Below are positions 2,519 through 56,284 of a stretch of DNA of 64,000 nucleotides, piece by piece (within the stretch, counting starts at the first letter, position 1; every line of letters starts with the position of its first letter). The notes beneath the pieces were generated by a model that made no database searches, was not told the DNA's origin, and saw only the letters and a program-made list of their open reading frames with translations. Position numbers and translations under genes: made by a program. This stretch comes from Shigella phage SHFML-26. The stretch lies in sequence record KX130862; one strand, 5' to 3'.

Positions 2519-4696
2519 TTAGGCCGCAAGGGCCTTCATAGTTTTAGCGATTTGAGAAACTTCATCATCACTTAAAGAGTTGCGATAACCGATGAAGTCG
2601 GAAACAATACGGAATTTCTTGGTAAACTCAGCAACCATTTTATCGCTGTTTTTTGAAGCATTATTTGATAATACATCAAAAAGATTAGTTACTGTCCAGA
2701 TGTCATGACCGATGGTATCTTTTCCACCATTAAAATATACGCCCCGTAATGAACTAACCATATTAGCGAGTCGTGTATATTCTTCAGAAACTTCATCTAT
2801 ACTGAAGTACTTCATCATAAAATCTAACTCAGGATACTTGATAATTTTATCAATATATCGTTTAGCTGAACTTGAATAACCTACATACTTATCATAATCT
2901 ACATCATCAAAAGCATCTACATATAAATCACGCAAAGCTTCAAAAATACATTGGCACTGACCGAGTTCTTTTACCTTTTTCTGCAAAAGCGGACGAATAA
3001 CATAAAATTCATTAATGCCAATAAGATTAGCCATACGAATCAAAATATTCATAGATGGATGACAAAGAGATGTAGTACCATCCATAGAGAAAATATCAGA
3101 ACGATGCATATACGCTACATACCCAGTAATTTCATCTGCTTCTGATGTGAGCGTAAATAATTCCTCTTTTTCCCAGCGCCCGTCTTTAATTTCAAACTTA
3201 AATGCTGTAGCAGCTTTAGGACGAGGAGCTTTACTTTTAACTACCTTTGGAATATAACTTTTTACTAAAGCTTCAATTTCTGACAAATAATGAATGTTAA
3301 CTTCATCACTTTCAAACATCGCCATAATATCAGGGAGTAAATCAATCTGCGATTCTACTTCTGGATTAATAAACAGAAGACGTTCGTTATGATGAATATT
3401 CAAAGTGTTATTAAATTCACTATCATCTAACGCTCGTGCTAATCCACGAACAATATTAACACGATTTTTAATATTATCAATAACGATATTAATTTTTGTT
3501 GTATTAATACCAAACAGACGATAACTTGATGCAACGGCTGAAGTTTCATGACTTTGCTTAATGCGCTTCAGTCGAGGGTCAAGATTTACTTCATACACAA
3601 CTCCTGCATTGCATAACTTACTATCAGGTTCAAACATGCTTTGCATCTTCTTATATGACAGATTTTTAGTCGTAAATTTGACTGAATTACTAATCATATA
3701 ATCTCGAGCAGAATACCCCATCTTCATCAATTCACGATATGTGTGACGAGGAGATGTAGATTCTTTAAATCGTTTTACATCTTCATTAAATGCTTTCTCA
3801 CTGAGTTCTTTAACTCGTTCAATAATATTTTTACGAGTGCGATCATCCAGTGAAAGAGCCTCGCGAGATGGAGCAATATCAAGTGAACCCATTGGAAACT
3901 TAATGTAATTCACTTCATTGCGAATGCTTAGCCAGTTACGGTCTCTAATAACACCATCAATAGGATAAACAATACCGCCATAGATAGCATATAATCCACC
4001 ACGATCAGGCCAGTATCTTTCTGGATTTACACCATAATAATCATCAAAATCAGGAAAATAATCAATTTCGCGGTCAAGACCATTAATGATAGCCAAATCT
4101 TTGAACGGTCGCATGATATAAGAAACTTCATAAGCAAAGTTTCTAAAATCTTTTTCTTCAACTGGAACTACGATTTCAATACCAGTTTTATCATCTGGAC
4201 CCATTTCTTTTACGAATGTAGGTTTAATCTGTGGGCCATCACCATCCATGTAAGCTACATAACCACGAATTTCACCTTTATGATACGAAGTAATACTAAA
4301 CGTATCAGTATAACTAAACGGAGATTTAGAACCTAAACCAAATCCGCCAATAAAGTCATTAGATTCAGCTTTAGATGAACTGAAGTATGAATTATACAAC
4401 CCAGGAGAATTATCATCACCTTGAATATCAAAATCACTCATACCCGGACCAAAATCTCGACAAACAAATCGCGGATCTAAACGTCCAGGAACTTGTATAA
4501 TAAATTTTTCAGGATTTCCATTAAGTGCATGAGCATCAATCATGTTAGTAATCAATTCACGGACTACTGCGCGAATCTTGTTTGTATACAAATCAGATGA
4601 CAGAATTTTAAATACTTTAGGAGATGCTGTGATGCTAAATGCTTTTGATTTAGAACCATTACCAAGAATTGTTTCTTTTTCAGTAGTGATAATCAT
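2519..4696 (-). CDS. rIIA: rIIA protein (725 aa)
   Basis: 725-aa ORF, recognised rIIA sequence and length. Confidence 0.9.
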
Positions 4697-4706
4697 AATT
4701 TCCTCA

Positions 4707-4910
4707 TTAATTCATATTACGCTTAATAACTTCGGCAACTTCTAGTAGTTCATCTTTAGTTGCGGTGTCGGATTGAATTTTATCTCTAATATCCTTAAAG
4801 CGGTTTTTAAATTCTTCGGCTTCTCCCATATCGAAAAAGCGTTGAATGATTCTATATTCTCGATGAACTGCTTTATCAAAAAGTTCTAAATTTACTTTAT
4901 ATGATTTCAT
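4707..4910 (-). CDS. rIIA.1-like small protein
   Basis: 67-aa ORF between topoisomerase gene and rIIA, behind an early promoter. Confidence 0.55.
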
Positions 4911-4935: not shown

Positions 4936-4965
4936 ATTATACCACATCCTTGTGGTAAAGTAAAC
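4936..4965 (-). promoter_or_regulatory. T4-type early promoter (GTTTAC -35, 18-nt spacer, TATAAT -10) for rIIA.1-rIIA-rIIB
   Basis: Minus strand reads GTTTACTTTACCACAAGGATGTGGTATAAT. Confidence 0.6.
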
Positions 4966-6782
4966 TACTGACTCATCCATTCTTTACGAAGGTCAGCATT
5001 ATCTCCCATGAGCATTTCAAAAAGCTCTTTCCAGTTCTCAGGAAGTTTAACAACATCATATACTGGGTTTTGAATCATCTCACGATATTCAGATTTTTCC
5101 AAAGAGCCAAGTCCCTTAATATAACGGATGCTATGTTTAGGTAGAGCATCTTTGGCACTCTCATATTCAGCGACTGTATAAAACCATTCTTGTTTTTTAC
5201 CGACCTGAGCGATGATTACAGGAGTTTTGACAAAACGAATTCGTCCTTGCTCAAACAATTCTGGCCAATTACTAAAAAATCCGAGCAGAGAAGGATAAAT
5301 GCTTCCTAGACCATCATGGTCAGCATCAGTCATAATAGCAATATTATGATAATTCAAGTTTTCAGCTTTTTCACCGAGAACTAATCCAGTGATTGCGCAA
5401 ATATCAAACAGTTCTTTGTTTTTAAGCATATCTGCATAAGACATACCCCAACTGTTGAGAACTTTACCGCGCAATGGATAACCACCGTGAAGTTCTTTAT
5501 CACGAACATCAATAAGATATCCGATAGCAGAATCACCCTCAGTCAAGAAAAGAGTAGTATCAGCATCTTTACCGCAAAGATTCGCTTTGATATGTTTATG
5601 AACCTTAGCTTTAGAAGCCTTTTTAGCTGCTTTAGTTTCTGCTGCTTTTTCTGCCGCCAATTTACGAGCCAAAGCAGCTTCAATAATCGGCATTAGAATT
5701 GCTTCATTATTTAGAATAGCACGTGAAATCTTTTTAGCATCAAGCTGAATATGACTACGGATTTCACCAAATGGAGAAGTCAAACGCTCTTTAGTTTGAG
5801 AATCAAATCGCATGTTTTTCATATCACGGACAAACATAACGATAGTCAAACATTCTTTAACGCGTGCTTTAGTCACATCAATTTTGAACTTACGTTTGAT
5901 TTGTGGAATAAGGTCTTCACAAATATCATCCATAACACAGTCAATGTGATGGCCACCATTCTTAGTGTGGATGTTATTCACATAAGTTAATTGACGAAAT
6001 CCATCCGGTGAACGACCAACTGCAATAGAACAATTTTCTTGTTCTTGAACAATAGCATGCTCATCATATTGGCGTGCATATTTCTTAAAATTGCCCTGAA
6101 CCTTTTTACCATTAAAGGTAAATTGAATATCAGGATAAACTACTGCAAGTGTCTGGAGACGATCTAATGTAATGTCAAGATAAACTTGGGACAGCTCATT
6201 AGTTTCAAATGACATAAAATCAGGAATGAAAGTAACACGAGTTCCTTTCCATTTTCCAGGAATATCTTCCCATGATTTATTTTCCATGCCATTTGAACAA
6301 CGAACTACAATATTATTTTGACCATCACCAGTTTCACCGACAAACATCACAGAAAAAATGTTAGTTAAACTAGAACCAACACCGTTCATACCACCGGTGA
6401 CACGTTCTTTATCATCACCGAAGTTACCACCTGCTTTTGGAATAGTCCATGCAGCAACAGGACCAGGAATTTCTTCACCGGTAGGTGTTTTAACCATCGC
6501 TTGTGGAATACCACGACCGTTATCTTCAACTGTTACTTGATTGTTTTTAATAGTAACATTAATTTTATTTGCGAATTTAAACTTAGTACGAATACCTTCA
6601 TCTACTGAGTTATCGATAATTTCATCAATAAGCTTAACAAGACCAGGTACATACTGAACACTTTCCCATTTACCAAACAGAAAGCGCTCATGCATTTCAT
6701 TAGCTGAAGAGCCAATGTACATGCCGCTACGCTTTTTGATATGTTCAATATCACTCAGAATTTTAATTTCATTCTTAATCAT
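4965..6782 (-). CDS. 39: DNA topoisomerase II large subunit (gene 39), single unsplit ORF of 605 aa
   Basis: GHKL ATPase and Toprim-like motifs (DNGRGIP, TEGDSA); ATG at 6780-6782 behind GAGGA; no gene-60 split or bypass gap. Confidence 0.9.
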   Translation of the reverse strand: MIKNEIKILSDIEHIKKRSGMYIGSSANEMHERFLFGKWESVQYVPGLVKLIDEIIDNSVDEGIRTKFKFANKINVTIKNNQVTVEDNGRGIPQAMVKTPTGEEIPGPVAAWTIPKAGGNFGDDKERVTGGMNGVGSSLTNIFSVMFVGETGDGQNNIVVRCSNGMENKSWEDIPGKWKGTRVTFIPDFMSFETNELSQVYLDITLDRLQTLAVVYPDIQFTFNGKKVQGNFKKYARQYDEHAIVQEQENCSIAVGRSPDGFRQLTYVNNIHTKNGGHHIDCVMDDICEDLIPQIKRKFKIDVTKARVKECLTIVMFVRDMKNMRFDSQTKERLTSPFGEIRSHIQLDAKKISRAILNNEAILMPIIEAALARKLAAEKAAETKAAKKASKAKVHKHIKANLCGKDADTTLFLTEGDSAIGYLIDVRDKELHGGYPLRGKVLNSWGMSYADMLKNKELFDICAITGLVLGEKAENLNYHNIAIMTDADHDGLGSIYPSLLGFFSNWPELFEQGRIRFVKTPVIIAQVGKKQEWFYTVAEYESAKDALPKHSIRYIKGLGSLEKSEYREMIQNPVYDVVKLPENWKELFEMLMGDNADLRKEWMSQ

Positions 6783-6834
6783 CACTTATCCTCGTTTGGT
6801 TTCGGGAATATTATACTCCGGTAATCATAAAGCT

Positions 6835-6853
6835 AAAGGCCCGAAGGCCTTTT
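6835..6853 (-). terminator. stem-loop (AAAGGCC-CGAA-GGCCTTT), possible bidirectional terminator
   Basis: 7-bp stem; weak U-run on minus strand. Confidence 0.35.
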
Positions 6854-7121
6854 ATTTAAAACGGATAGTCGAATCCTTAAAGAACAACCCAGAACATACG
6901 GTTCCTTCTACTTTTTGCCCAGTAGGTCCAATAGCACGAAATCCAGTATGCTGGAAATCATTTTCAGAGCAACCGAACCAGTTATATCCAGTGATTTCAA
7001 TATTAGTAAAACCACTTGAAGACAAAATTTTAGTTGCATTATCAGCATCAGTACATCCTACTAAAGACACTACTAGTACTAATGCCGCGATAGAACGATT
7101 AATATATTTCATAATTTTCAC
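6852..7121 (-). CDS. putative lipoprotein (signal peptide with LVGC lipobox)
   Basis: ORF track; N-terminal signal and lipobox. Confidence 0.5.
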   Translation of the reverse strand: MKIMKYINRSIAALVLVVSLVGCTDADNATKILSSSGFTNIEITGYNWFGCSENDFQHTGFRAIGPTGQKVEGTVCSGLFFKDSTIRFK

Positions 7122-16387: not shown

Positions 16388-16859
16388 TTGTTTTACCTAA
16401 AACAACAGTAGGAGCATCATCAAATTCATGAATTTTTAGCAAATTTGGATGTAAACTATTCCATACAGAAGAAATAAAGTATGATAAAGCGTCTTCACTC
16501 GCAATTATAAATTTATTTCCTTTATCTATTTTCCAACTATATACTGAATCATACGAATAAAATGATAAAGGTTTATTATTATAATGTTCTGTGCTAACGT
16601 TAATGTATTCTGATTTAGTAAATGCTTCAATTGCTCTAAACGGAATATTTGGCACAGTTTCAATAATACCAATCTTTTTAAGTTTTATTTCAGCATCTTC
16701 TGGAACTGGCATTGAAACGAAATTTTCTACGAGATACATTGGGTCACAATAACCCTTATCAATCATTACTGCTACAGTAATTGGAACATCTTTAGCAAAC
16801 GACATGCTATTACTGCTAATATACATTTCAAACAAAATCGCTTCCATAATTTTCCTCAA
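16362..16859 (-). CDS. hypothetical protein
   Basis: ORF track. Confidence 0.5.
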
Positions 16860-17194
16860 TCACAAGATGTAGATGAACAACTAGAATCACAAGAACTTCC
16901 ACATGAATCGCCCGTCCATACATGAACAGGAACATTAGTGTCATATGAATCAGAACTAGACTGTGTATTCTGCGTATTAGATGATGTAGGTGTTGACCAG
17001 CGCCAAGGATTTTTATAATATTCTTGGGCTTCTTCATAAGTCATAGTAACTGCTTCTACTGTTCCATCTCCCATATAAACATATTCAACTACAGTTAAAG
17101 GAAGGTAGTCATTTGAAATAGGAACTACACCTTCTCCGGGAGTTGTAGAGAAAAAATCCGTAAAGAAACTTTTAAACCAATTAAAGATAAACAT
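16856..17194 (-). CDS. hypothetical protein with Cys/Ser-rich C-terminal tail
   Basis: ORF track; C-terminus [15 protein letters not shown]. Confidence 0.45.
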
Positions 17195-17400
17195 TACAAA
17201 AAGCCTCTTTTGAATTCAACTTGCTTCTCGCCATAATCATATCGAATCTCTGCATTAAATTCAACAGAACCATCTGCGTACATCATAAATGAATGCACAA
17301 CAACTTCTGTAGACCATGGCTGTAGTTCATATTTCTTCATTACATGCCGTGAAATGATAATATCTAAATCTTCATTTGGTTTAATCCAGCGATTTAACAT
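17194..17400 (-). CDS. hypothetical protein
   Basis: ORF track; early promoter at 17427-17456. Confidence 0.45.
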   Translation of the reverse strand: MLNRWIKPNEDLDIIISRHVMKKYELQPWSTEVVVHSFMMYADGSVEFNAEIRYDYGEKQVEFKRGFL

Positions 17401-17426
17401 AGTGCTCTCCTCTATAAGATAATTCT

Positions 17427-17456
17427 ATTATACCATACTCATTTTGGAAAGTAAAC
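17427..17456 (-). promoter_or_regulatory. T4-type early promoter directly after soc terminator
   Basis: GTTTAC ... TATAAT. Confidence 0.55.
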
Positions 17457-17460
17457 CGGT

Positions 17461-17490
17461 AAAATGAAAAAAGGACTCCCGAAGGAGTCC
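17461..17490 (-). terminator. intrinsic terminator after soc
   Basis: GGACUCC-UUCG-GGAGUCC then UUUUUUCAUUUU. Confidence 0.65.
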
Positions 17491-17498
17491 TTGAATTA

Positions 17499-17735
17499 TT
17501 AACCACCTATTTCTGTAGGCGTAAACATTGCAGCATTCTTAGTTTTCCAAGTTGCTGCATCGGAAACTACATCAGAATAAGCTGCTTTTTCTGAAGGAAA
17601 GATTTGATAATGAGAATCTGCAATACGGTGTTCATTTGAATATACATCAAATGCTACAGAAACTTCCATACCTTTAACTTCTTTGCCTTCACCCGCTGGA
17701 TGAGTAAAGGTCTTGATGTTAACGAAACCACCCAT
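17499..17735 (-). CDS. soc: small outer capsid protein Soc
   Basis: 78-aa ORF recognised as Soc; late promoter TATAAATA upstream; terminator downstream. Confidence 0.8.
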   Translation of the reverse strand: MGGFVNIKTFTHPAGEGKEVKGMEVSVAFDVYSNEHRIADSHYQIFPSEKAAYSDVVSDAATWKTKNAAMFTPTEIGG

Positions 17736-17766
17736 AATAAACTCCTTTATTGTTTAATTACAGGTG

Positions 17767-17774
17767 TATTTATA
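17767..17774 (-). promoter_or_regulatory. T4 late promoter TATAAATA upstream of soc
   Basis: Exact TATAAATA on minus strand ~30 nt before soc start. Confidence 0.6.
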
Positions 17775-17944
17775 TCAGTCTTCAATGAAAACTTGTGCCA
17801 GGAATTCGTGTTCATCTTGAATTTGTTTATATAAAGCCATTACAGCATTTATATTAGAGCTATCTACTTTAAGTTGATAGGCATACCACTCGTATAAATT
17901 AATTAAAGCTTTTTGTCGTCTAATAAATTCTTCTTTGGATATTT

Positions 17945-18145
17945 TCATTTTGAATGCTCTATAATTAATTTTAAGGCTTCTTTACTGACAAAAATTTCAT
18001 CAAGACCTTCTTCTACACCCCAATCAACTACACGAAGCTGATTAGATAAGAGCTCGTATGTGAGCTCCTTGTCATAATTTTTAAATAGCTGGTCAATACG
18101 TTTCTTGTGGGCTTTCTTAAGCTGGCGTTTATTTAAACGAGCCAT
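17945..18145 (-). CDS. hypothetical protein
   Basis: ORF track. Confidence 0.4.
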   Translation of the reverse strand: MARLNKRQLKKAHKKRIDQLFKNYDKELTYELLSNQLRVVDWGVEEGLDEIFVSKEALKLIIEHSK

Positions 18146-18663
18146 TAATAACCTCGGTCTTGACGAGCGAAGTTTTCAGCATTTTTCAGATAATAAAGTT
18201 TAAAGATTTCTTCAGCCGTAAGACCGAGGCCTTGGAACATGTTCAGAACGAAATGAAGAATATCAATCATTTCGAATTTAATTTCCAACTGGTCTTGTGG
18301 AGACAAATCAGTAATCAGAGTTTCACGTCGTTCACCATGTTGAGCTTTCCAAGGCTTCCATACAGCAGATGCATCTTTTTCACCATTGCTCATACCACCA
18401 AGAGAAGTCAATAGTTCGCGGAATTCATCATCAATATAATCTTTCTGATTACGCAGCCAATCAACAACTTCACCCGCAGTAGCCAAATCATCAGGATGAC
18501 GGTTATATTCAGGTTTATCTTTAGCTAAACGAACCTGCAGAGATTTCTGCATATCAAGCATAACTTGCAACGGGTCTTTTTCATCACCGAGAATATCCCA
18601 GTATTCATTTTGAGCTTTATCAGCGCCTTCAATCAGTTGTGAACATTCATTAAAGTATGCCAT
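18145..18663 (-). CDS. 56: dCTP pyrophosphatase (gene 56, MazG-like)
   Basis: Start moved to ATG at 18661-18663 (MAYFNECSQL) behind AAGGAAA; 172 aa. Confidence 0.8.
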   Translation of the reverse strand: MAYFNECSQLIEGADKAQNEYWDILGDEKDPLQVMLDMQKSLQVRLAKDKPEYNRHPDDLATAGEVVDWLRNQKDYIDDEFRELLTSLGGMSNGEKDASAVWKPWKAQHGERRETLITDLSPQDQLEIKFEMIDILHFVLNMFQGLGLTAEEIFKLYYLKNAENFARQDRGY

Positions 18664-18734
18664 TATTTTTCCTTTCAATTCATGGGTTAGTAGATTAATT
18701 ATACAATAAATATATAAAGCAATAAGGAGGATAT

Positions 18735-18935
18735 ATGGTACAAAAATTAATGGCACTTGTTAATGCCATAAAAGGTAATAAAAAACGTATAGCTTTTACT
18801 ATTTCTGCTATGGTAGGAATTTTACTCTGGAATTTTGTTTTATCACCAATTGCTATTGCTCATGGTGTTAATATTCCAGTAATTACTCTTGATACATTCG
18901 TAGATTTAGCATTTGCTTTAGTTGGGTTAATTTAA
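18735..18935 (+). CDS. small hydrophobic membrane protein (66 aa)
   Basis: Only convincing plus-strand ORF; AGGAGG SD 6 nt upstream of ATG; lies between genes 56 and 61. Confidence 0.4.
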   Translation: MVQKLMALVNAIKGNKKRIAFTISAMVGILLWNFVLSPIAIAHGVNIPVITLDTFVDLAFALVGLI

Positions 18936-24638: not shown

Positions 24639-25481
24639 TTAATCAACTGCTATTGGATGAATAGCATTAAACTTATGAAACGCTTCTGATTTTTCTTTGC
24701 GCGAAACACACATGCGAAGAACCTTTAATGGCTCGTCTTCTTCACCTAATGATTTTCGTTTTTCAATATTAGAAGTTTTCCAACGAGCTTGCTCTGGAAA
24801 CTCTCTATTGATTTGCTCAAGCGCTCTATTATGTTTAGAATTACTACGAATTGAGCTACATCCGCCTGGAGCTTGCGCTTTTCCAGATACAACCAGATAT
24901 TTGAACAAGGCCAAATGCGGATAACCTTGATTAATTAAATTGAGAAATGCATACATATCTTCGCATAAATCAATTTTTCCATACCCAATTTGTTCTGTTG
25001 TAAGTTTTCCAAGGTCATACCAAGTATTCGTGAATCCATATGAATTTTCACGATAATTACCCCAAGATGAAGTAATTTTAAAAATTGGTAAACGAGCATG
25101 ACCATGATAATACCCGCAATCCATGGCATCTTCAACGTATTGAATCAATTCATAGAACTGTTCACGAGTTAGCTGATTAATTTTATCTACGCAGCGACGA
25201 TCATCTTTCTTTCGCATTGAACTCATACGAATAGTAGTATCATCATCAATCATCCAAATTCGTTGACCTGCATACATATCAGTAATTGCTTTACGAGTAC
25301 CAGCAATTCCGTTAACATCATCAGGAATAGTTATAATTTTAGCTCTAGACCCGTAAGCGTCATAATAAGCTTTTTCTTCGTGTTCACGCACTACAATATG
25401 AGGTTCATAATCAGTCGGAAACATATCAAGGGCAGAAACTGCCCCTACGCGTTGATAGCTTGGAATTACGAATTGAATCAT
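24639..25481 (-). CDS. glycosyltransferase (GT-A-like with DxD motif) in the DNA glucosyltransferase position
   Basis: MIDDD motif; ATG at 25479-25481 forms ATGA overlap with gene 42 stop. Confidence 0.6.
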   Translation of the reverse strand: MIQFVIPSYQRVGAVSALDMFPTDYEPHIVVREHEEKAYYDAYGSRAKIITIPDDVNGIAGTRKAITDMYAGQRIWMIDDDTTIRMSSMRKKDDRRCVDKINQLTREQFYELIQYVEDAMDCGYYHGHARLPIFKITSSWGNYRENSYGFTNTWYDLGKLTTEQIGYGKIDLCEDMYAFLNLINQGYPHLALFKYLVVSGKAQAPGGCSSIRSNSKHNRALEQINREFPEQARWKTSNIEKRKSLGEEDEPLKVLRMCVSRKEKSEAFHKFNAIHPIAVD

Positions 25482-26218
25482 TTCCACTCACCGTTATAAT
25501 CTTTTTTCGCAATATGAGTTTCGCCAGTTTTCCACCAATGGTCAACCAAATAAAAATGACGGGAATACACATGAAGGCTCCCGACATTCCATATAATGGA
25601 ACCTGCTTTATACTGACGAGTTGAATCACCTGCATTCAAATCAGATACTAATTTATCTAGTACGTATTTTTGCCATGCATAATCATTACGGAATCCGAAA
25701 ACCACGTCATTTGAACGCATGCTTACTACTGCATTGACTTTCTTGTCACGAATCAGATACTGTACGGTATTCGTACACATGAAATCTGACATACCATCTT
25801 TATTGTAGTCAAACTGCATAGATGGACGAGTATAAATCATGATACCACGTCGAGAATCAGGATTTTGACCAAGTTCAGCTAGACACATATCATATTGAGC
25901 ATAGTTATCTTCTGACCAGATAGCCCAACCATAATTCGAGTTAATTTCACCTTTAGAAGATGCTACCTGCTGCCAAATCTTTGGTGTTTCACCTGGAATA
26001 TCTTTAACAAACAAGCTCTTAGATTTATACCATTCAAGTTCACGCTGGATGTATTCATCATTAAGAGCGCCAAAAATAAACGGTTCATCTGCTACAAATG
26101 ATGCGCCAATAATTTCAATAGTTTTAACGCCAGTTTTATCAACTACGAAATCTTTTTCTTTTAATGCAAGCCCCAAATGAAGACGGATTTCTTCAACTGT
26201 CATAGAGTCACTAATCAT
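25478..26218 (-). CDS. 42: dCMP hydroxymethylase (gene 42)
   Basis: 246 aa; thymidylate-synthase-like fold; recognised sequence. Confidence 0.9.
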   Translation of the reverse strand: MISDSMTVEEIRLHLGLALKEKDFVVDKTGVKTIEIIGASFVADEPFIFGALNDEYIQRELEWYKSKSLFVKDIPGETPKIWQQVASSKGEINSNYGWAIWSEDNYAQYDMCLAELGQNPDSRRGIMIYTRPSMQFDYNKDGMSDFMCTNTVQYLIRDKKVNAVVSMRSNDVVFGFRNDYAWQKYVLDKLVSDLNAGDSTRQYKAGSIIWNVGSLHVYSRHFYLVDHWWKTGETHIAKKDYNGEWK

Positions 26219-27195: not shown

Positions 27196-29895
27196 TCAGC
27201 CAAACAGGAAGTCTAACGAAGCTTTTTCTTCATAGTCCATACCTGCCGATTCACACATACCTGCAAGCGGCTTAACAAACGATTTTTGGAACAAAGTTGA
27301 GTAGTCAATCCAAGATAGTACGTCAGAACGAATTTCTTTTGGAAGTTCTGTACCTGATGGCCAAGCAATGCACTTGTCACCAAATGGATTTCCTTCACGT
27401 AATGGAAGAACCATTACTTTATTTCCATCCAAAATTGGAGCTACACCTAAACCACTAACAGCTCGACGATAAGTTAGCACACCACGAATATGGAATGGGC
27501 ATTTAAATCCTGGCCAACCTTTATCATCATATTTCGCTATATCGTTCGCAGTTTTTACTTCAGCAATAACTTTATAGTCAAGTTGACGATATTCTTTCTC
27601 GAAGTTCTTGTAGTATTCTTGGACAGACTCTTCACCTTCCTGAAGAATACGACGAATACTTTCTTCGAGAGCTTCTTGCACCGCTTTTGGTGTTGAACTC
27701 TGCTGAGTTTCCATACCCATGATTTTTAGATGCGGTTCGGCAAATCGCTTATCTTCCATATCATAAACGTTCAGAGCATAACGTTTTTTCGCTTTCCAAA
27801 ATCCACCAACACCCTTTGAACCAAGCGGAGGGCAAGAAATAGCTTCACGGTCCATATGCATCAGATGCTCGCGGTTATTCATATAATCACATAACTCACG
27901 ATATGCAACATCAATCATAGGTTCCATCTTTTTCTTACCAAACTGATTCATGAATTCAACTAAATCATTTTGTTCTTTAAAGCGGTCAAGACCTACTTTT
28001 TCAATTACTTTATCTACACAAACATATACCGAATCAGTATCACCTGCTGCGATGAAATCTTCACCATTAGTTCCACATACTTTATTCAGATATTCATTAA
28101 TTTTGCGAGCAATCCATTGAATACCGACTTGACCGAAAATTGTGATAGCAGTAGCATTTCGCAAATCATAGTAGCGGAAATGAATATTACCAAGAGCACC
28201 ATAAAGACTGTTAATAAGAATTTTACGGTTCAACTGATTTGTGTTAGCAAGTGTAGCAGCTTTTTCACATTCTTCAATCAGACTGTTAAGAACAGATTCG
28301 GTGTAATTCGATAATTCGTTTAAGAAATCATCATTGAACTTAACATATCGTTCAACTTCCGGTTTAGTTGAACAGGACCCTGCGCCTTTCATAATAATCT
28401 TTTTAATAGCTTCGGCATTCATTTCTTCAGCGAACATTTTCTTTTTCCAATCTTTACGCTGGAAAAATACTTTAGCGATTTCCTTTGGAATGATACCTTC
28501 TTGATGCTTATCATACATCCATCCATTCGGAGAACAAGAATATTCATCACTCGGTTTAGGAGCTGTTCCTGCGATATATTCATGAATTGGATGAACTTTA
28601 AACTGCCCACGAATAGTCTCAGGACTAATGTTAACCTGACGAATAATGCTCGGATACAGAGACGTCAAGTCAAAACTCATAATATATCGACGAGCAATTG
28701 GTTTAGGTTCAAATACAAATGCACCCGGAAAACTCTGTTTAACGTGCGAACCTTGTTGAGGAATAACCTTATGTTCACCTTTCAATGAGTTAAAAATAAT
28801 AGCATCCCAAGTTTTAATAGGACTCATTACACCAGAAAAAGGCATTTTAGCATAATAAGACATACTTAAAACTAGATCGATAAACCCGCGAATTTTATCA
28901 ATTGCTTGAACTGATTCTACGTCAATGATGTTATAACTAATGTATCGTTGATGATTAGTCTCACGAAGTTTATTAATAGGACCGTCGTATGGTAATTTAC
29001 CTTTTTTGGTTTCATGTTGAGCAACTGATTCCAAAGAGAATGACGGCAAATTAGTAAATGCGAATTTCTTATACAAATCTAAATAATCAAGAATAGATAC
29101 GCCATCAATAGAATAAATTTCTTTGCTACCGTACATATTTTGAATTAGTTTAGATTTTACCCGACCGATTGGAGAGAAACGTTTCATACTGCGTTCACCT
29201 AGAATCATTTTAACGCGATTCATAATATATGGAACGTCAAACCCCTCAATATTCCAACCAGTAAAAATAGCAGGTCGTTTCTGTTCCCAGAGATTGATAT
29301 ATTCCATGAGCATATCACGCTCATTATCGAATGGCATATAAATTACTCGGTCAAGAATTTCTTGAGGAACTTCATCACCACCTTCACAGTCAAGCTTAGC
29401 AGCTAACTTTGCATCCCATTTTGATACTGAACCGTACATTGAATTCAAAAGGTCGAAAACATAAAAACGATCATCAATTGAATCGTAATGAGTGATAGCA
29501 TCAATTTCATATTCAGCTTTCATTGGGTCAGGAAATTTATCACCAGTAACCTCAATGTCACAGTTAGCTACACGAACAAATTTTCGGTCATAAACAATTT
29601 CTGAACCATACGTATCACTGATATAAGCGAGTTTAAAATCGTTCATACCGAGAGCTTCGAGACCGATGTCTTCCATTCGTTTCATCCAATCTCGAGCATA
29701 TTTCATTGATGGTAAATTTTTGAGGTAGCGCTAGTTTTTACCATAGATGTCTTTGTACTTTGACTCTTCCTTACAATGCCTAAACATAGTTGGAAGATAT
29801 TCTACTTCACGAGTACGTTCCTTTCCGTTTTCATCAATATAACGTTCAACAATGTTATTTCCGACTGTTTCAATAGAGATATAAAATTCTTTCAT
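27196..29895 (-). CDS. 43: DNA polymerase (gene 43, family B), interrupted by in-frame TAG at 29731..29733 (codon 55); longest ORF 27196..29706
   Basis: ATG at 29893-29895 ([14 protein letters not shown]...); exo and pol motifs (FDIE, YGDTDS); translational operator hairpin upstream. Confidence 0.85.
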
Positions 29896-30196: not shown

Positions 30197-30976
30197 TTAA
30201 TTACCAATCGTATATTTAGGAACGAGTTTCCATTCATGCTTTTGTTTAAAAGAAATAACTCGGAAGTTATTAGTTAAATCTTTCATAAAAGTTCTTTGAC
30301 CAGGAACGATTTCAATCAGTCCCCAATCTTCTAATAGCCATGCAATCGAATCACGACGAACTTCATCTTCTTCTGTCATTTCAACTTGGCGACCATCCAT
30401 ACGAAGCATTTCTTTAAAATGAACGATATAGTGCTTGCAGATTTCAGTCAATCGACGAATCATCTGCTTCATCATTTCAATTTTATCTTCATCGGTCGGT
30501 TGACCGAACGTAATAACTCGGCAGCGTGACTGAAGTGGTTTAATAATACCATCAATATTATTAGCAGTAATAATAATACTGCAGTTTGAACTATAAGCTT
30601 CCATAAAGGAACGAAGATGTCGCTGAGACTCTGCTAACCCTGAGCGGTCAAATTCATCAATAACGATTACTTTTTGACGACCATCAAATGAAGCTGCACT
30701 AGCAAAATTAGTCAAAGGACCACGAACGAAATCAATTTTACAGTCTGATCCATTCACAAACATCATATCAGCATTTACATCATGACACAATGCTTTTGCT
30801 ACAGTTGTTTTACCTGTTCCTGGAGAAGGAGAATGAAGAATAATATGTGGAATTTTACCTTTACTTGTAATAGATTTAAAGGTTTCTTTATCAAAGGCGG
30901 GAAGAATACATTCATCGATAGTAGATGGACGATATTTCTGTTCAAGAATGTGTTCTTTTTCATTTACAGTAATCAT
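30197..30976 (-). CDS. 44: clamp-loader gp44 N-terminal 182 aa fused in frame to RegA C-terminal 77 aa (gene 62 absent)
   Basis: ATG at 30974-30976 behind GAGGA; Walker A GTGKTT, Walker B VIVIDEFD, SRC motif; tail YIVHFKEM...KYTIGN matches RegA C-terminus. Confidence 0.7.
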   Translation of the reverse strand: MITVNEKEHILEQKYRPSTIDECILPAFDKETFKSITSKGKIPHIILHSPSPGTGKTTVAKALCHDVNADMMFVNGSDCKIDFVRGPLTNFASAASFDGRQKVIVIDEFDRSGLAESQRHLRSFMEAYSSNCSIIITANNIDGIIKPLQSRCRVITFGQPTDEDKIEMMKQMIRRLTEICKHYIVHFKEMLRMDGRQVEMTEEDEVRRDSIAWLLEDWGLIEIVPGQRTFMKDLTNNFRVISFKQKHEWKLVPKYTIGN

Positions 30977-31002
30977 AATTTCCTCATTCAAGTTTTAGTG
31001 TA

Positions 31003-31026
31003 AATTATAAAGGGCCGAAGCCCTTT
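31003..31026 (-). terminator. intrinsic terminator after gene 45
   Basis: AAAGGGCUUCGGCCCUUU then UAUAAUUU. Confidence 0.55.
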
Positions 31027-31027
31027 A

Positions 31028-31714
31028 TTAAAAATCGTGGGTAGAATCAGCTTCAAGAGCTACTACATAATTCGCATGTTCACCTTCAAATTTAGCAGCA
31101 CCTTGTTTACCTTTTGCCCAGAGCAGAAGTTTATAATTTCCTGGTTGCATTTTCATATTTGCCATGTTGATAATGAAATTAAATGTATTTTCACCATCAT
31201 AATCACCAAGAGTCAAAGAATATTTAACACGGGTCAAAGCAGAATCTTCTACTTTATTAAAACCGTTAATTACGATTTTACCTTCTTTTACTGTGATAGC
31301 AATTGTATCAATCTGCAGACCACGAGATACACGCAACAGCTGTTGAAGGTCTTCAGCTTTAATTTCAGTAACAACAGATGCTACCGGGAATGGAATTGGT
31401 TTATTAGGAGCAACTACTGTGCTCGGATCAGCTGCTGGCCAAAAAATTGTTGAACGAGCATCAGCAATTTTAATATTTCCATCTTCTGACTGGGAAATTT
31501 CTGCATCGTCATTAACTAGGGACAGAATACCGAGAAAACCGTTCAAATCGTAAATTGCTACATCAAAATCAATAGTGTCAGAAATATTTGCTTCCGCATA
31601 AGTTGTACCATTAACTGCGCGAGTCATAATAAATTGACCAGATTTAAGCATAATGCCAGAGTTAATAGTAGCGAAATTTTTAAGCAGAGCAGTAGTATCT
31701 TTAGACAGTTTCAT
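31028..31714 (-). CDS. 45: sliding clamp (gene 45)
   Basis: 228 aa, recognised gp45 sequence. Confidence 0.9.
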   Translation of the reverse strand: MKLSKDTTALLKNFATINSGIMLKSGQFIMTRAVNGTTYAEANISDTIDFDVAIYDLNGFLGILSLVNDDAEISQSEDGNIKIADARSTIFWPAADPSTVVAPNKPIPFPVASVVTEIKAEDLQQLLRVSRGLQIDTIAITVKEGKIVINGFNKVEDSALTRVKYSLTLGDYDGENTFNFIINMANMKMQPGNYKLLLWAKGKQGAAKFEGEHANYVVALEADSTHDF

Positions 31715-34110: not shown

Positions 34111-34965
34111 TCACAATGAAGAAAATTCTTTAACTAAAGCCTGTAATGAAGCCTCTATTGGATATCCATTCTTAACTAACATTTTCCTAAACATCACATG
34201 TTTAGGACGATTATATGATATCCACAATTCATACAATTTATCTTTATTATCCCAATGATAGCCTTTTCGTCGAGATGCTATATGAGCTTTTCTAATCTCC
34301 GGATTTTTCCAACTAGCAGCTACTGAATTTGATATAGCTATTTTATATTCAGGTTTTGATAAAGCAGCACGAACAGCCTTTTGGTGTTTAATTTTATTTT
34401 CTTCGTTATTAAACCATTCCCTTGAAGCCATTGAAATTTTTTGTTTTGTTTTAAAATTATTTAATCTTTCTTTGTTATCTTTCCTATTTTTTGCTACTGA
34501 AAAATATTTTAATGCCCTTTCTCTAGCAGCATTTCTATTTTGCGGATTTGAATAATATTGTTGAAGCCTTTTTGATATTGTGTCACTTACATCTTGTTTT
34601 ATAAAACTATATTCAGCAGCTATTAAATCAACTTCGGCTAAAGATAAATTTTTATATGTTTTTCCTGACATCATTCTATTTAAAGCATTTAGCATTTTTC
34701 CATTTTTACCTTTTGCTAATAAGAAATGTGCTTTAAAATGATTAAAATGACTTAAATTAACTAAATTCCATGTAGATTTTAAATATTCAGGAAATATTGA
34801 TTTAGGAAGCACGTGATGTGCTTCCGTTTTACCTGGAGTTTTAACAGTTGAATTCATAGAAATAAAATTAATGTAAGACTTGGCGTCTTCTTCACTCAAC
34901 GCTAATTTTTCAACTAATTCCTTTATTAAAAATTCATCATTAATGTCAAGTTTAAAATTCTTCAC
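34111..34965 (-). CDS. free-standing HNH homing endonuclease
   Basis: HNH-like motif (EAHHVLP...NLVNLSHFNHF); GTG start at 34963-34965 behind AAGGAA; inserted between 46 and 47. Confidence 0.65.
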   Translation of the reverse strand: MKNFKLDINDEFLIKELVEKLALSEEDAKSYINFISMNSTVKTPGKTEAHHVLPKSIFPEYLKSTWNLVNLSHFNHFKAHFLLAKGKNGKMLNALNRMMSGKTYKNLSLAEVDLIAAEYSFIKQDVSDTISKRLQQYYSNPQNRNAARERALKYFSVAKNRKDNKERLNNFKTKQKISMASREWFNNEENKIKHQKAVRAALSKPEYKIAISNSVAASWKNPEIRKAHIASRRKGYHWDNKDKLYELWISYNRPKHVMFRKMLVKNGYPIEASLQALVKEFSSL

Positions 34966-43447: not shown

Positions 43448-45257
43448 GTTTTACTCGTTTTACCATTTCTTTCATTTTACCTAAATTCCATGGAACAACG
43501 CTAGGAGTTCCAAGATATCCGCATGTTCTTCTTATTGTATTCATCTTTTTAGGATCAGTTTCTCCACAAATAGAACAAACAAATCCGTTTTCAGTAGGAG
43601 TCATTTCATGGGTACTTCCGCATGTAAAACACTTATCTACTGGCATGTTAACACCAAAATAATCTAAATGTTGTACAGCATAATCCCATACAGCCTCAAG
43701 ACCTTTTAGGTTATTTTTCATATCAGGAAGTTCAACATAAGAAATGTGACCACCTGTCGCAATGAAATGATATGGCGCTTCACGAGAAATTTTTTCAAAC
43801 GGAGTAATATTTTCTTCTACTGAAACGTGGAAACTATTAGTGTACCAGCCTTTATCGGTAACATCTTTTACACTTCCATATTTTTCTGTATCAAGTTTAC
43901 AGAAGCGATAACAAAGGTTTTCAGCAGGAGTCGAATATAAACTAAAAGCAAATCCAGTTCTTTCAGTCCACTGTTTAAGATGAGCATTCATTTTAGTTAA
44001 AATTTCTTGTCCAATATCACGACCGACAAGAATATTCAATTCGTGAATACCAATGTATCCTAGGGACACTGAACTTCTACCATTTTTAAATAACTCAATT
44101 ATATCGTCATCAGGTTTAAGACGAACCCCGAATGCACCTTCTTGGTAAAGAATAGGAGCAACAGTCGCTTTAACTCCTTTTAAGGAACTAATTCTACACA
44201 TCAAAGCTTCAAAACATAAATCCATTCGTTCATTGAATAATTCAACAAATTTCTGTTCATTGAACTGTGTTCCAATATAAGAATCTAACGCGATGCGAGG
44301 AAGATTCAGTGTTACAACACCAAGATTATTACGTCCATCAAGAATTTCATTACCAGTCGAATCTTTCCATACGCTCAAGAAACTACGGCAACCCATTGGA
44401 GAAACAGGAATAGATGAACCAGTGATAGCTTTATTGTTCTTAGCTGAAATAATATCAGGATACATTCTTTTGCTTGCACACTCTAGAGCAAGCTGCTTAA
44501 TATCATAGTTCGGATCGTCTTTATAAAGATTAACACCTTCTTCAACAAACATAACAAGCTTAGGGAAAATAGGAGTTATCCCATCACGACCAAGACCTTT
44601 AATACGATTTTTCAGAATTGCTTTCTGAATCATTCGTTCAGTCCAGTCAGTTCCTGTACCAAATGTAATTGTTACAAAAGGAGTCTGTCCGTTTGAACTA
44701 AAGAGAGTATTTACTTCATATTCATAAGCTTGGAATGCATCGTATACGTCTTTTTCTGTTTTAGATTGAGCATAATTTAACGCATCAGCGATTTGCCATT
44801 TTTCTGCATCCTCAATATGTTTTGCATAGGTGCGTTTAACATAAGGAGAAAGTACTTTATCTACATTAGCAAAAGTCGTTCCGCCGTATTGGTGAGAAGC
44901 AACCTGTGCAGTAATTTGTGCCATAATTGCAGTAGCAACGCCAATTGATTTAGGAGTTTCAATCTGCGCATTACCTAGCTTAAATCCGTTCTCAAGCATT
45001 CCTTTTAAATCTACTAAACAGCAATTAGTAAATGGAAGAGCAGGGGAATAATCAATATCGTGGAAATGAATAATTCCGCTTTCATGCGCTTTCATAATAA
45101 AAGACGGGACCATATTTTTGGCAATGTGTTTAGACACAATACCAGCCATAAGGTCCCGTTGAGTTGGAAAAACACGAGAATCTTTATTAGCATTCTCGTT
45201 TAAAAGGTCTTTATTAGTTTTATGAATCAATCCTTCAATTTCTTTTTCAATTGTCAT
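43440..45257 (-). CDS. nrdD: anaerobic ribonucleoside-triphosphate reductase NrdD (intronless)
   Basis: 605 aa; C-terminal glycyl-radical region and Cys-rich zinc site; continuous ORF. Confidence 0.9.
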   Translation of the reverse strand: MTIEKEIEGLIHKTNKDLLNENANKDSRVFPTQRDLMAGIVSKHIAKNMVPSFIMKAHESGIIHFHDIDYSPALPFTNCCLVDLKGMLENGFKLGNAQIETPKSIGVATAIMAQITAQVASHQYGGTTFANVDKVLSPYVKRTYAKHIEDAEKWQIADALNYAQSKTEKDVYDAFQAYEYEVNTLFSSNGQTPFVTITFGTGTDWTERMIQKAILKNRIKGLGRDGITPIFPKLVMFVEEGVNLYKDDPNYDIKQLALECASKRMYPDIISAKNNKAITGSSIPVSPMGCRSFLSVWKDSTGNEILDGRNNLGVVTLNLPRIALDSYIGTQFNEQKFVELFNERMDLCFEALMCRISSLKGVKATVAPILYQEGAFGVRLKPDDDIIELFKNGRSSVSLGYIGIHELNILVGRDIGQEILTKMNAHLKQWTERTGFAFSLYSTPAENLCYRFCKLDTEKYGSVKDVTDKGWYTNSFHVSVEENITPFEKISREAPYHFIATGGHISYVELPDMKNNLKGLEAVWDYAVQHLDYFGVNMPVDKCFTCGSTHEMTPTENGFVCSICGETDPKKMNTIRRTCGYLGTPSVVPWNLGKMKEMVKRVKHA

Positions 45258-54288: not shown

Positions 54289-55302
54289 TCATTTATAATA
54301 ACTTCGGTGGTTTTCAAGATAGACCTTCTCAAGGAAGTCATCCCAGAAACCCATGTCTACTTTTTGCTGCATACCGTTCTTAGAAGCTTCAGTAGATGCT
54401 GCTTCTACTTGATCGACCACATCTTCCAAAAACTCTTGAACCGTTTTAAATGGATGTTTACCCAACTTCACGTCGAGAATAAATGGAGCGTCTTGAAGTG
54501 GATAAATCAAGTCGCCAGTTTTGTAAATTTCCAATAGTTGGAGTCCACCACGACAAGCATGGCTCAGAGCTTTCCAGTCAATACCTTCATTGGCTTCAGC
54601 CTTACGAGCGCGTTCACCATATTCAGCATCTAATTTGTTCAGTGACTGCTTAAGCTCAATAAGAGAAAGAGTTGTCTGATATTTACGACCCAACACTGTG
54701 TAAAACGTCTGTGGGCCTGTTTTCTCATGATTATGGAACACCCATTCACAGAATTCGTTTTCTGGAAGACGATGCTTAATATCTTCAACTTTAGTGCGAC
54801 GCTGCTTAATAGAACCATCTTCTTGATAATCAATCCATTGCTCAGGGATTTGATTAACTACTTTCAATACATCACGTAATGCAGCCAAACGAGAACCCTT
54901 GACACCGTATTTAGAAGCTTGCTTACGGACATATCCTAAATAGGATTTCATGTTAGTCGTATAAAAACGAGAACGGTTGTCTTGAATAAACTTCCATACA
55001 TCAGGCAAATCGGATTTAACCACTAGTTCAGGTGGAGTGTGAAGCATATCCAACGCTACAGTTTCACCATCTGCTGCTAATTTAAAGAAATACTTAAGAC
55101 TGTATAGTTCATGGTCAATATCATCTTTAGTGTTTTTAGATGATGTGTTGTTAGTGTTTTTACTCATATGCTCTTTAACATTTCCGATAAGAATATCGCG
55201 AGCAGGAGGAACAAAGATTTCTTTAAAATCTACATCAGATTCTGGGGTAGAAGTTCCATAAAGATGACTACCAAAATAGCTTTTCATTACTGTTTTCATC
55301 AT
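54289..55302 (-). CDS. Pol-beta-superfamily nucleotidyltransferase-like protein
   Basis: N-terminal GS...D.D signature (GSHLYGTSTPESDVDF). Confidence 0.55.
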   Translation of the reverse strand: MMKTVMKSYFGSHLYGTSTPESDVDFKEIFVPPARDILIGNVKEHMSKNTNNTSSKNTKDDIDHELYSLKYFFKLAADGETVALDMLHTPPELVVKSDLPDVWKFIQDNRSRFYTTNMKSYLGYVRKQASKYGVKGSRLAALRDVLKVVNQIPEQWIDYQEDGSIKQRRTKVEDIKHRLPENEFCEWVFHNHEKTGPQTFYTVLGRKYQTTLSLIELKQSLNKLDAEYGERARKAEANEGIDWKALSHACRGGLQLLEIYKTGDLIYPLQDAPFILDVKLGKHPFKTVQEFLEDVVDQVEAASTEASKNGMQQKVDMGFWDDFLEKVYLENHRSYYK

Positions 55303-55760
55303 TCAGCCTTATATTCAATAACAGGACATACTTTAGCTTTACGAGCTTTTAAAAATTCAACGATAATCGATTTCTTGGGTTGAATAGGAGGTAAACCTTT
55401 ATACGCCCTATCAATATTTTCTACGTGTAAAGCATAATCCTTTTTCCATTTATAATCTTTATATTTTTCACGCAAATGTGCAGGAATAACAAATGAACCG
55501 ATAATAAGTAAAACAACCAAAAGCGCAAGTATAAATGCCGATGGAAGAAGAGTCCATAAACTACCGAAAATAAGCCAACGTTGTAGGCTTTCTGCACAAA
55601 TAATTGTTAGCCCTACGAGTATAGCACATCCAAAAATAGAAACGAAAAATGTAGGAATGGCAATAGACCAAAAATATGCGCATAGTGTCTTAGGTCGTTG
55701 CCATTCATCGTTAAATAGTTTAAATAATTTATAGTGCCAAGAGTTTTCATTAATAATCAT
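55299..55760 (-). CDS. membrane protein (multiple TM segments)
   Basis: ORF track; ATGA overlap with nucleotidyltransferase gene. Confidence 0.5.
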   Translation of the reverse strand: MIINENSWHYKLFKLFNDEWQRPKTLCAYFWSIAIPTFFVSIFGCAILVGLTIICAESLQRWLIFGSLWTLLPSAFILALLVVLLIIGSFVIPAHLREKYKDYKWKKDYALHVENIDRAYKGLPPIQPKKSIIVEFLKARKAKVCPVIEYKAE

Positions 55761-55762
55761 AA

Positions 55763-56284
55763 TTATCCTTTCATTGAAGGCGTAACAGTTGTTAAATACT
55801 TAATCATAGCCTCAGCTTCTGATTTTGATAATGAAATTTCTCCATTGTTTTGACGAATAGAAATAAAATCCGGATGACGGTCACCACCAGCTTTTAAAAC
55901 ACACATATAAGTATCAGTTTCATCTTCAATATTTGAAATGATTGAAGCAGTTCCACATGAATGCGGTTTTTGATAAATCAATACAGCTTTTCTTCCGCCA
56001 TTTGACTGTTCATAAACTTTTAATACATCAAACAAATCACTTCTTTTATCAATAGCTAAAATGTTATTTTCATCTTCAATGTTAAATCCTTCGGATACTT
56101 CATAAAGTGTCACCCATAAATCGCCAATATCAATAACAGCGTTCACTTTTCCATGACTTTCAAGAGCATGACAAATTTTCTTGATTTCGTCATAACTCAT
56201 TTTAATAATATCATCTCCTTGAATAAGAAAGATGTCATTTTTAAATTCAACACGAATTAAACCACTTCCACTTGAAATAAACAT
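55763..56284 (-). CDS. hypothetical protein, paralog of 56291..56848
   Basis: Similar architecture and C-terminal motif (KYLTTVTPSM vs KTYLDSVIPTM). Confidence 0.5.
   Translation of the reverse strand: MFISSGSGLIRVEFKNDIFLIQGDDIIKMSYDEIKKICHALESHGKVNAVIDIGDLWVTLYEVSEGFNIEDENNILAIDKRSDLFDVLKVYEQSNGGRKAVLIYQKPHSCGTASIISNIEDETDTYMCVLKAGGDRHPDFISIRQNNGEISLSKSEAEAMIKYLTTVTPSMKG

Follow-up and report, generated by a model that had tools for sequence, protein, structure and literature searches.

Among phages related to T4, the large subunit of the type II topoisomerase is encoded either by one continuous gene or by two. Here we ask which arrangement is present in a 64-kb stretch of the Shigella phage SHFML-26 genome (KX130862; the whole stretch is referred to below as the window), and what that arrangement says about the phage. 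In T4 (NC_000866), the annotated order is rIIA, rIIA.1, gene 60, 60.1, a mobA pseudogene, and gene 39, and gene 60 is a joined CDS with the 50-nt bypass region annotated at 2803–2852. The starting premise of the original prediction, that T4 divides the protein between genes 39 and 60 with an insertion and a 50-nt bypass, therefore agrees with the T4 annotation, in which mobA and 60.1 lie between the two genes. For the window, we are close to certain that gene 39 lies at 4965–6782 on the minus strand in the uninterrupted form usual among Tequatroviruses. It is predicted to encode the ATPase/Toprim subunit of a two-subunit topoisomerase by plain translation, and its site for the MobA/bypass cassette is empty. 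No sequence evidence against this assignment was found.

The open reading frame itself is straightforward. In the ORF listing its longest form spans 4965–6785 on the minus strand and encodes 606 aa from a GTG; an ATG lies one codon 3′ of this GTG, at 6782, and yields 605 aa. The spacing of a Shine-Dalgarno-like GAGGA favors the ATG at 6782 over the GTG at 6785 as the start, and the annotated gene 39 starts in T4, T2, and T6 match this ATG (MIKNEIK). Translation from 6782 to 4965 encounters zero internal stops, so the single 605-aa ORF that had been claimed is present, stop-free, and without a frame break. We also looked within 4965–5500 for the gap or frame break that the original prediction had named as the observation that would overturn it. 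Neither was found, since codons 491 and 492 are contiguous and in frame, the 50-nt gap sequence is absent, and the colinearity with T4 is gapless. Gene 39 is read straight through from its ATG at 6782 to the TAG at 4965–4967, without recoding. The features of the gene and its surroundings are collected in Table 1.

Table 1. Features of gene 39 and of other loci discussed in the text, with positions in the window.
Feature	Position	Strand	Remarks
rIIA	2519-4696		Downstream of rIIA.1 and gene 39
rIIA.1	4707..4910	minus	Downstream neighbor of gene 39; PF24210, E 1.4e-33
Gene 39, uninterrupted, 605 codons plus TAG stop	4965..6782	minus	Topoisomerase II large (GyrB-like) subunit
TOPRIM_C domain, aa 519-604	4971..5228	minus	Pfam PF16898, E 4.2e-07; matches C-terminal part of T4 gp60
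"Parental" segment of 64 nt (codons 474-494 region), empty homing site	5301..5364	minus	T4 has the 1117-nt MobA element there (T4 2794-3910)
Codons 491-492, GGT CTA, contiguous and in frame	5307..5312	minus	T4 there: take-off GGA (Gly46), UAG and 50-nt gap ending in landing GGA, then TTA
Toprim acidic motif DADHDG, aa 486-491	5310..5327	minus	T4 counterpart on gp60
Toprim motif TEGDSA, aa 414-419	5526..5543	minus	T4 counterpart on gp39
Transducer domain DNA_gyraseB, aa 250-384	5631..6035	minus	Pfam PF00204, E 1.4e-13
GHKL ATPase domain, aa 47-149	6336..6644	minus	Pfam HATPase_c PF02518, E 2e-09
Shine-Dalgarno-like GAGGA	6789..6793	minus	6 nt upstream of the ATG at 6782; sequence read directly
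39.1 homologue	6852-7121		Upstream of gene 39
ggt, 282-aa beta-glucosyl-HMC-alpha-glucosyltransferase	24639-25487		phrog_842, E 1.9e-89

The GHKL ATPase, the transducer, and a complete Toprim (E-G-D-S-A and DxDxD) are all carried on one polypeptide. A motif scan placed the N-box DNSVDE at aa 57, DNGRGIP at aa 87, and GGMNGVGSS at aa 130, and the QTK loop of the transducer is at aa 329. The stretch that includes the acidic Toprim motif, MTDADHDGLGSIYPSLL, corresponds to aa 484–500 of the 605-aa gp39. Manning & Atkins (2022) describe the T4 split as parting the metal-binding site; since DADHDG is on gp60 and TEGDSA on gp39 in T4, both halves of that site are here on one chain.

Outside the element, T4 genes 39 and 60 encode the same protein as the window, and the flanking DNA is 96–99% identical. 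Window residues 1–473 align without gaps to residues 1–473 of T4 gp39 (98.5% identity), and residues 472–605 align without gaps to residues 27–160 of T4 gp60 (95.5%). At the DNA level, window 7114–5365 aligns to T4 5661–3911 (96.2%) and window 5300–4607 to T4 2793–2100 (99.1%), placing the breakpoints at window 5365 and T4 3911 on one side and at window 5300 and T4 2793 on the other. Between these breakpoints T4 has 1117 nt, made up of the gene 39 tail, mobA, 60.1, the gene 60 head, and the 50-nt gap, and in the window their place is taken by 64 nt of parental sequence, matching T2 at every position (64 of 64). Compared with T4, the window lacks the 43-aa gp39 tail, mobA and 60.1, the 30-aa gp60 head, and the divergent homR copy; homR, the internal homologous copy in T4, is identical to the window at only 37 of 54 positions. 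The window is also without the GGA/UAG take-off, the 50-nt gap, and the take-off hairpin. A codon-by-codon table shows that the codons around 491–492 differ from those of T4 at many synonymous positions.

These boundaries can be compared with those already in print. Manning & Atkins (bioRxiv 10.1101/2022.08.31.505936) give a length of 1097–1106 nt for the MobA element, longer in laboratory T4. In their account the element deletes a 64-nt stretch of the “parental” gene, adds a tail of ~43 aa to gp39, and supplies gp60 with a head of ~46 aa and the bypass cassette; in phages of the T4 clade (clade 1) it reaches 9 nt beyond the gap. The breakpoints between the window and T4 agree exactly with the published boundaries, both in the 64 nt deleted and in the 9 nt that follow the gap. 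The same preprint reports that each clade of element carriers has close relatives without the insertion. The element of ~1.1 kb, found in T4 and a minority of its relatives, replaces these 64 nt, splits the Toprim between gp39 and gp60, and brings the 50-nt coding gap with it.

Traces of the element were sought across the whole window. Even with up to three mismatches allowed, the 50-nt gap sequence of T4 is absent from the 64 kb. In tblastn searches of the same 64 kb, intact MobA (from HY01), the gp39 tail (CTE), and the gp60 head (NTE) gave no significant match other than an HNH paralogue, which was the sole match to MobA and lies at another locus (34285–34881, 29% identity). The ORF that contains it (34111–34965) was considered as a relocated MobA and rejected: the 29% identity extends over the N-terminal HNH region only, and T6 has an ORF of the same size at that position. 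Nor was a take-off hairpin seen. The 90 nt of window RNA around the site fold no better than shuffled sequences (z = −0.08), and the equivalent 90 nt of T4 fold at z = −2.05 with the GGAUAGCCUUCGGGCUAUCU take-off hairpin. The original prediction that there is no gene 60 split and no bypass signal is therefore borne out, with 64 nt in place of 1117 nt, GGT CTA at the position of the take-off, and the gap sequence absent.

Continuity of the gene could still have come about in ways other than simple absence of the element. The site may once have held MobA and later been restored by gene conversion with the empty allele of a co-infecting phage, in which case the continuity would be secondary. Several observations fit such a history. 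Gene 39 is a mosaic in which the nearest relative shifts every few hundred nucleotides, and its tree mixes phages that carry the cassette with phages that do not. In the account of Manning & Atkins (2022), the element has been gained repeatedly and lost progressively. However, the same authors report that split genes that have lost the endonuclease retain the CTE and NTE tails, and the window contains no remnant of either; the 64-nt segment matches T2 throughout, and its flanks are clean parental sequence. A perfectly healed site would be indistinguishable from one that had never been occupied, with no bearing on function, and no feature of the window sequence favors a healed site over a never-invaded one. 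We consider restoration unlikely, though it is the least improbable of the alternatives; a healed allele, if that is what this is, would illustrate the part of the homing cycle in which the element is lost.

An error of assembly or consensus that collapsed a T4-type split locus into one ORF is far less probable still, and we give it hardly any weight. The window does have a junction seen nowhere else, the fusion of gene 44 to regA described below, and errors or rearrangements in the source are therefore conceivable. But deleting the element from a T4-type genome cannot yield the 64-nt parental segment, which is lacking there; homR is identical to it at only 37 of 54 positions. The same reasoning led us to reject an event like the 44–regA deletion as the origin of gp39 continuity. 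In addition, the query is matched over 80% or more of its length by about 520 phage records, and the 10 non-T4 loci checked by annotation, like the eight assemblies listed, have the same uninterrupted arrangement. Finally, the full-length protein might still need recoding of another kind, such as a frameshift or a hop elsewhere in the gene. We found no support for this in gene 39; the 605 codons have no internal stop and are gaplessly colinear with the T2 and T6 proteins and with a solved 611-aa chain, which leaves the idea with a negligible probability, the smallest of the three. The uninterrupted gene 39 with an empty site thus remains the reading that we adopt.

Whether an uninterrupted gene 39 identifies the lineage of the phage is a separate matter. 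The original prediction placed the window in a T2/T6-like lineage rather than in T4. The second half of that statement holds, as the window is not T4 itself. The mean DNA identity to T4 is ~95% over 33 kb, no counterpart was found in the window for T4 mobA, segF, dam, segA, b-gt, mobB, or the nrdD intron/I-TevII, and the positions of mobC and mobD in T4 are occupied by different sequence. The first half does not hold as an assignment to a T2/T6 clade, because an unsplit gene 39 is the majority state and T2 and T6 are not sisters. Of 564 phage records that match the gene 39 region, 499 do so at 90% identity or more, and the cassette was found in 43, a number that includes many T4 isolates and duplicate entries. 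Exact searches of IMG/VR gave three contigs with the empty-site 27-mer and none with the 28-mer of the T4 take-off and gap.

To place gene 39 among its relatives, identities and a tree were calculated from the first 1416 nt, aligned for 12 phages. ACG-C40 and HP3 (both 97.9% identical to the window) and T6 (97.7%) are without the cassette; RB55 (97.0%) and T4 (96.6%) carry it; and T2, also without it, has the lowest identity of all comparators (95.3%). Cassette carriers are polyphyletic and fall in three places in the tree, namely T4 with RB55; HY01 with JEP6 and ELT1; and e11/2 beside T2. T2 thus groups with a cassette carrier and is not the sister of T6, and no grouping of the window with both T2 and T6 to the exclusion of cassette phages was recovered in the 12-phage tree. 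The nearest relative of the window changes from block to block along gene 39. An unsplit gene 39 defines no clade, since it is the majority state and the carriers are scattered in the tree, and T2 and T6 form none in gene 39. A similar picture is given by ggt, an independent marker of the T2/T6 type, which sits where T4 has segA and b-gt and is colinear with the ggt locus of T6; it too is the majority state, with 473 records compared with 29 for T4 b-gt. The closest relatives at the DNA level are the Tequatroviruses SHFML-11, ACG-C40, and HP3. No record in the phage collection is identical to the window; the best reach ~96–97% in stretches of 25 kb and 98.0% in the gene 39 region. Together these data support generic Tequatrovirus as the fair label for this genome, and the T4 species label is unsuitable.

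At the protein level the relationships are much closer. The gp39 of the window is identical to that of T2 at 604 of 605 residues and to that of T6 at 603 of 605, both without gaps, and it shares its length, domain order, and synteny with the T2 and T6 genes. The DNA divergence from those genes, which for T2 amounts to 96.0% identity over the whole gene, is put as synonymous only, beside the one (T2) and two (T6) residue differences of the proteins. An index of public assemblies has an identical 605-aa protein in 619 blocks, and in all eight places listed of these 619 it is encoded by one gene in the same neighborhood. Residues 1–605 also match chain C (611 aa) of PDB 8ylu with 1385 bits. Structures of the T6 and T4 topoisomerases II have been solved (Nat Commun 2024, PMC11461880). 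According to that work, the T2/T6 enzyme consists of two subunits, gp39 and gp52, and the T4 enzyme of three; the T6 protein was assayed as well as solved. By homology to the solved T6 enzyme, the gp39 described here would pair with gp52 to form a two-subunit type IIA topoisomerase. From the ~99.5% identity to the T6 protein we infer an ATP-dependent relaxation activity, and near-identity to the T2 and T6 proteins predicts that the gp39–gp52 enzyme would use ATP to relax and decatenate phage DNA.

The architecture of GHKL ATPase, transducer, and Toprim is common to gp39, bacterial GyrB and ParE, and the N-terminal half of eukaryotic Topo II. PDB matches of gp39 include human Topo II alpha and beta, yeast Topo II, ParE, and GyrB, with E values from 1e-36 to 1e-59. 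Compared with these proteins, however, the phage gp39 is much shorter, is distant in sequence, and pairs with the phage gp52; the phage enzyme is without the C-terminal domains of gyrase and topo IV (PMC11461880).

The surroundings of gene 39 are conserved. The synteny rIIA–rIIA.1–39–39.1 is kept in the window, with the same order in T4, T6, and eight assemblies. The gene for gp52, the GyrA-like partner, was not found within the 64-kb window. In the eight assembly places listed, a 442-aa gp52 (PF00521) is encoded ~6.6 kb downstream of an identical gp39, so the gp52 gene of SHFML-26 would lie a short way outside the window, past its left end (position 1).

The identity of the 64-nt segment to T2 also bears on how this allele might behave in the presence of a homing phage. 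Intact MobA nicks T2 gene 39 in the area of the 64-nt region, the element homes into T2, and the 50-nt insert shields carriers from self-cleavage (Bonocora et al. 2011, as cited in bioRxiv 10.1101/2022.08.31.505936). Since the corresponding segment of T2 is the published MobA target, the window allele is predicted to be a MobA-sensitive empty site, which would be nicked and converted in a mixed infection with a MobA-positive phage. It represents a textbook case of an empty site for the MobA/bypass cassette, and homing experiments could use it as a recipient control. For annotation, gene 39 should be called as one 605-aa CDS, without a ribosomal-bypass join. An uninterrupted gene 39 is a correct and useful call for annotation, yet unsurprising, as published work already covers the unsplit gene of T2 and T6, the split and bypass in T4, the boundaries of the element, the relatives with empty sites, and the structures. 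With the form, distribution, and structure of the two-subunit enzyme already in print, the finding is of little importance beyond annotation.

Elsewhere in the window, a 264-aa ORF at 30197–30991 fuses residues 1–181 of gp44 in frame to residues 46–122 of RegA. At window position 30432, exactly 1114 nt that are present in T4 (30208–31321) and T6 (27702–28815) are missing, and the breakpoint shows 1 nt of microhomology. Nowhere in the 64 kb is there a copy of gene 62 or of the lost parts of gene 44 (C-terminal) and regA (N-terminal). Of 509 matching phage records, not one runs across the junction without a break, no exact-protein record of the fusion was found, and an exact scan of IMG/VR and the JGI metagenomes did not recover the junction 32-mer. 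The 44/62 clamp loader is essential in T4, and the loss of gene 62 therefore points to a defective variant, to a deletion that was engineered or arose spontaneously, or to an error of assembly. As the deletion is apparently lethal, the source sequence may be that of a defective variant or an imperfect assembly. The deletion has no effect on gene 39 itself; the 44–regA fusion is the only truly unusual item in the window and is unrelated to gene 39.

Exactly 1114 nt (T4 30208-31321; T6 27702-28815) is missing from the window at position 30432, and what remains of gene 44 is joined to what remains of regA as a single fusion ORF. Lost with this deletion are the whole of gene 62, the 3' portion of gene 44 and the 5' portion of regA, and no copy of any of the three was found elsewhere in the 64-kb window. 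The gene 62 product is a clamp-loader subunit that is essential in T4. Of 509 phage records that match, none runs across the junction without a break; the junction 32-mer does not occur in IMG/VR or the JGI metagenomes, and a protein look-up returned no existing record of the fusion protein. The deletion could mark the phage as a defective variant or as a deletion mutant, or it could stem from an error in assembly. At its 3' end the fusion ORF is overlapped by the 5' end of an 87-aa ORF; this small ORF has no counterpart in either T4 or T6.

Features located in the window, with their coordinates and details
Feature	Position	Strand	Details
Sigma-70-like promoter match, strong	4936-4964	(-)	TTTACT, 17 nt, TG-TATAAT; 10/12
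ORF, 123 aa	7118-7489	(-)	phrog_622; between 39.1 and 39.2; weak similarity to goF-type proteins
ggt, beta-glucosyl-HMC-alpha-glucosyltransferase, 282 aa	24639-25487	(-)	phrog_842, E 1.9e-89
ORF, 87 aa	29974-30237	(-)	phrog_3826, unknown function; within 219 nt inserted between gene 43 and regA
44-RegA fusion ORF, 264 aa	30197-30991	(-)	gp44 aa 1-181 joined in frame to RegA aa 46-122; junction at 30432
HNH (Mob-type) homing-endonuclease-like ORF, 284 aa	34111-34965	(-)	inserted between genes 46 and 46.1
GIY-YIG endonuclease-like ORF, 276 aa	42617-43447	(-)	48% identical to the SegA N-terminus

The window also differs from T4 in its complement of DNA modification genes. In the interval from uvsX to gene 42, which holds segA and b-gt in T4, the window has ggt in a locus colinear with that of T6, and b-gt was found nowhere in the 64 kb. 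This is the majority state, with ggt present in 473 phage records as against 29 with the T4 b-gt. A tblastn search with T4 Dam likewise gave no match to a DNA adenine methyltransferase gene (dam) in the 64 kb, and at 18703-18724 the window has 20 nt in place of 899 nt in T4 (16826-17724). The dam-less arrangement is shared by other phages; for example, Paracelsus spans window positions 1-24998 as a single piece. Two proteins are unusually diverged, with amino acid identity to T4 of 74% for gp56 (18145-18756) and 57% for Soc (17499-17735).

Several sites occupied by mobile genes in T4 have other contents here. The segF region is replaced by an unrelated short ORF of 66 aa (17681-18181), and the mobD region by unrelated short ORFs of 153 and 173 aa (55299-56284). 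Between nrdG and nrdD, the GIY-YIG-like ORF takes the place of the T4 HNH gene mobC, and at 44719-44722 nrdD is without the 1035-nt group I intron with I-TevII found in T4. The site of T4 mobB (861 nt), at window 37798/37823, lacks that gene. Conversely, the HNH-type ORF occupies a site that is empty in T4 but holds an ORF of the same size in T6 (T6ORF054); over the HNH region, its identity is 29% to MobA and 32% to MobB.

Closer to gene 39, the 123-aa ORF has no equivalent in T4 but is found in T6, SHFML-11, ACG-C40, HP3 and e11/2, the last of which bears the MobA cassette, the mobA insertion that splits gene 39 in T4. The ORF is a further marker that does not track the cassette. The sigma-70-like match comes directly behind the stop codon of gene 39 and precedes rIIA.1. 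Upstream of gene 39, a GC-rich hairpin (AAAGGCCTTCGGGCCTTT, about 6852-6835) is followed by TATAAT (6815-6810). Within the gene itself, codons 326-328 read LIR (TTGATTCGT) in the T4 reference NC_000866 and FDS (TTTGATTCT) in the window, T2, T6, RB55 and all other phages compared. The two readings differ by a pair of single-base shifts that compensate each other, immediately ahead of the QTK loop, and the LIR reading probably goes back to an old error in sequencing, or to a lab-strain change, in that reference.
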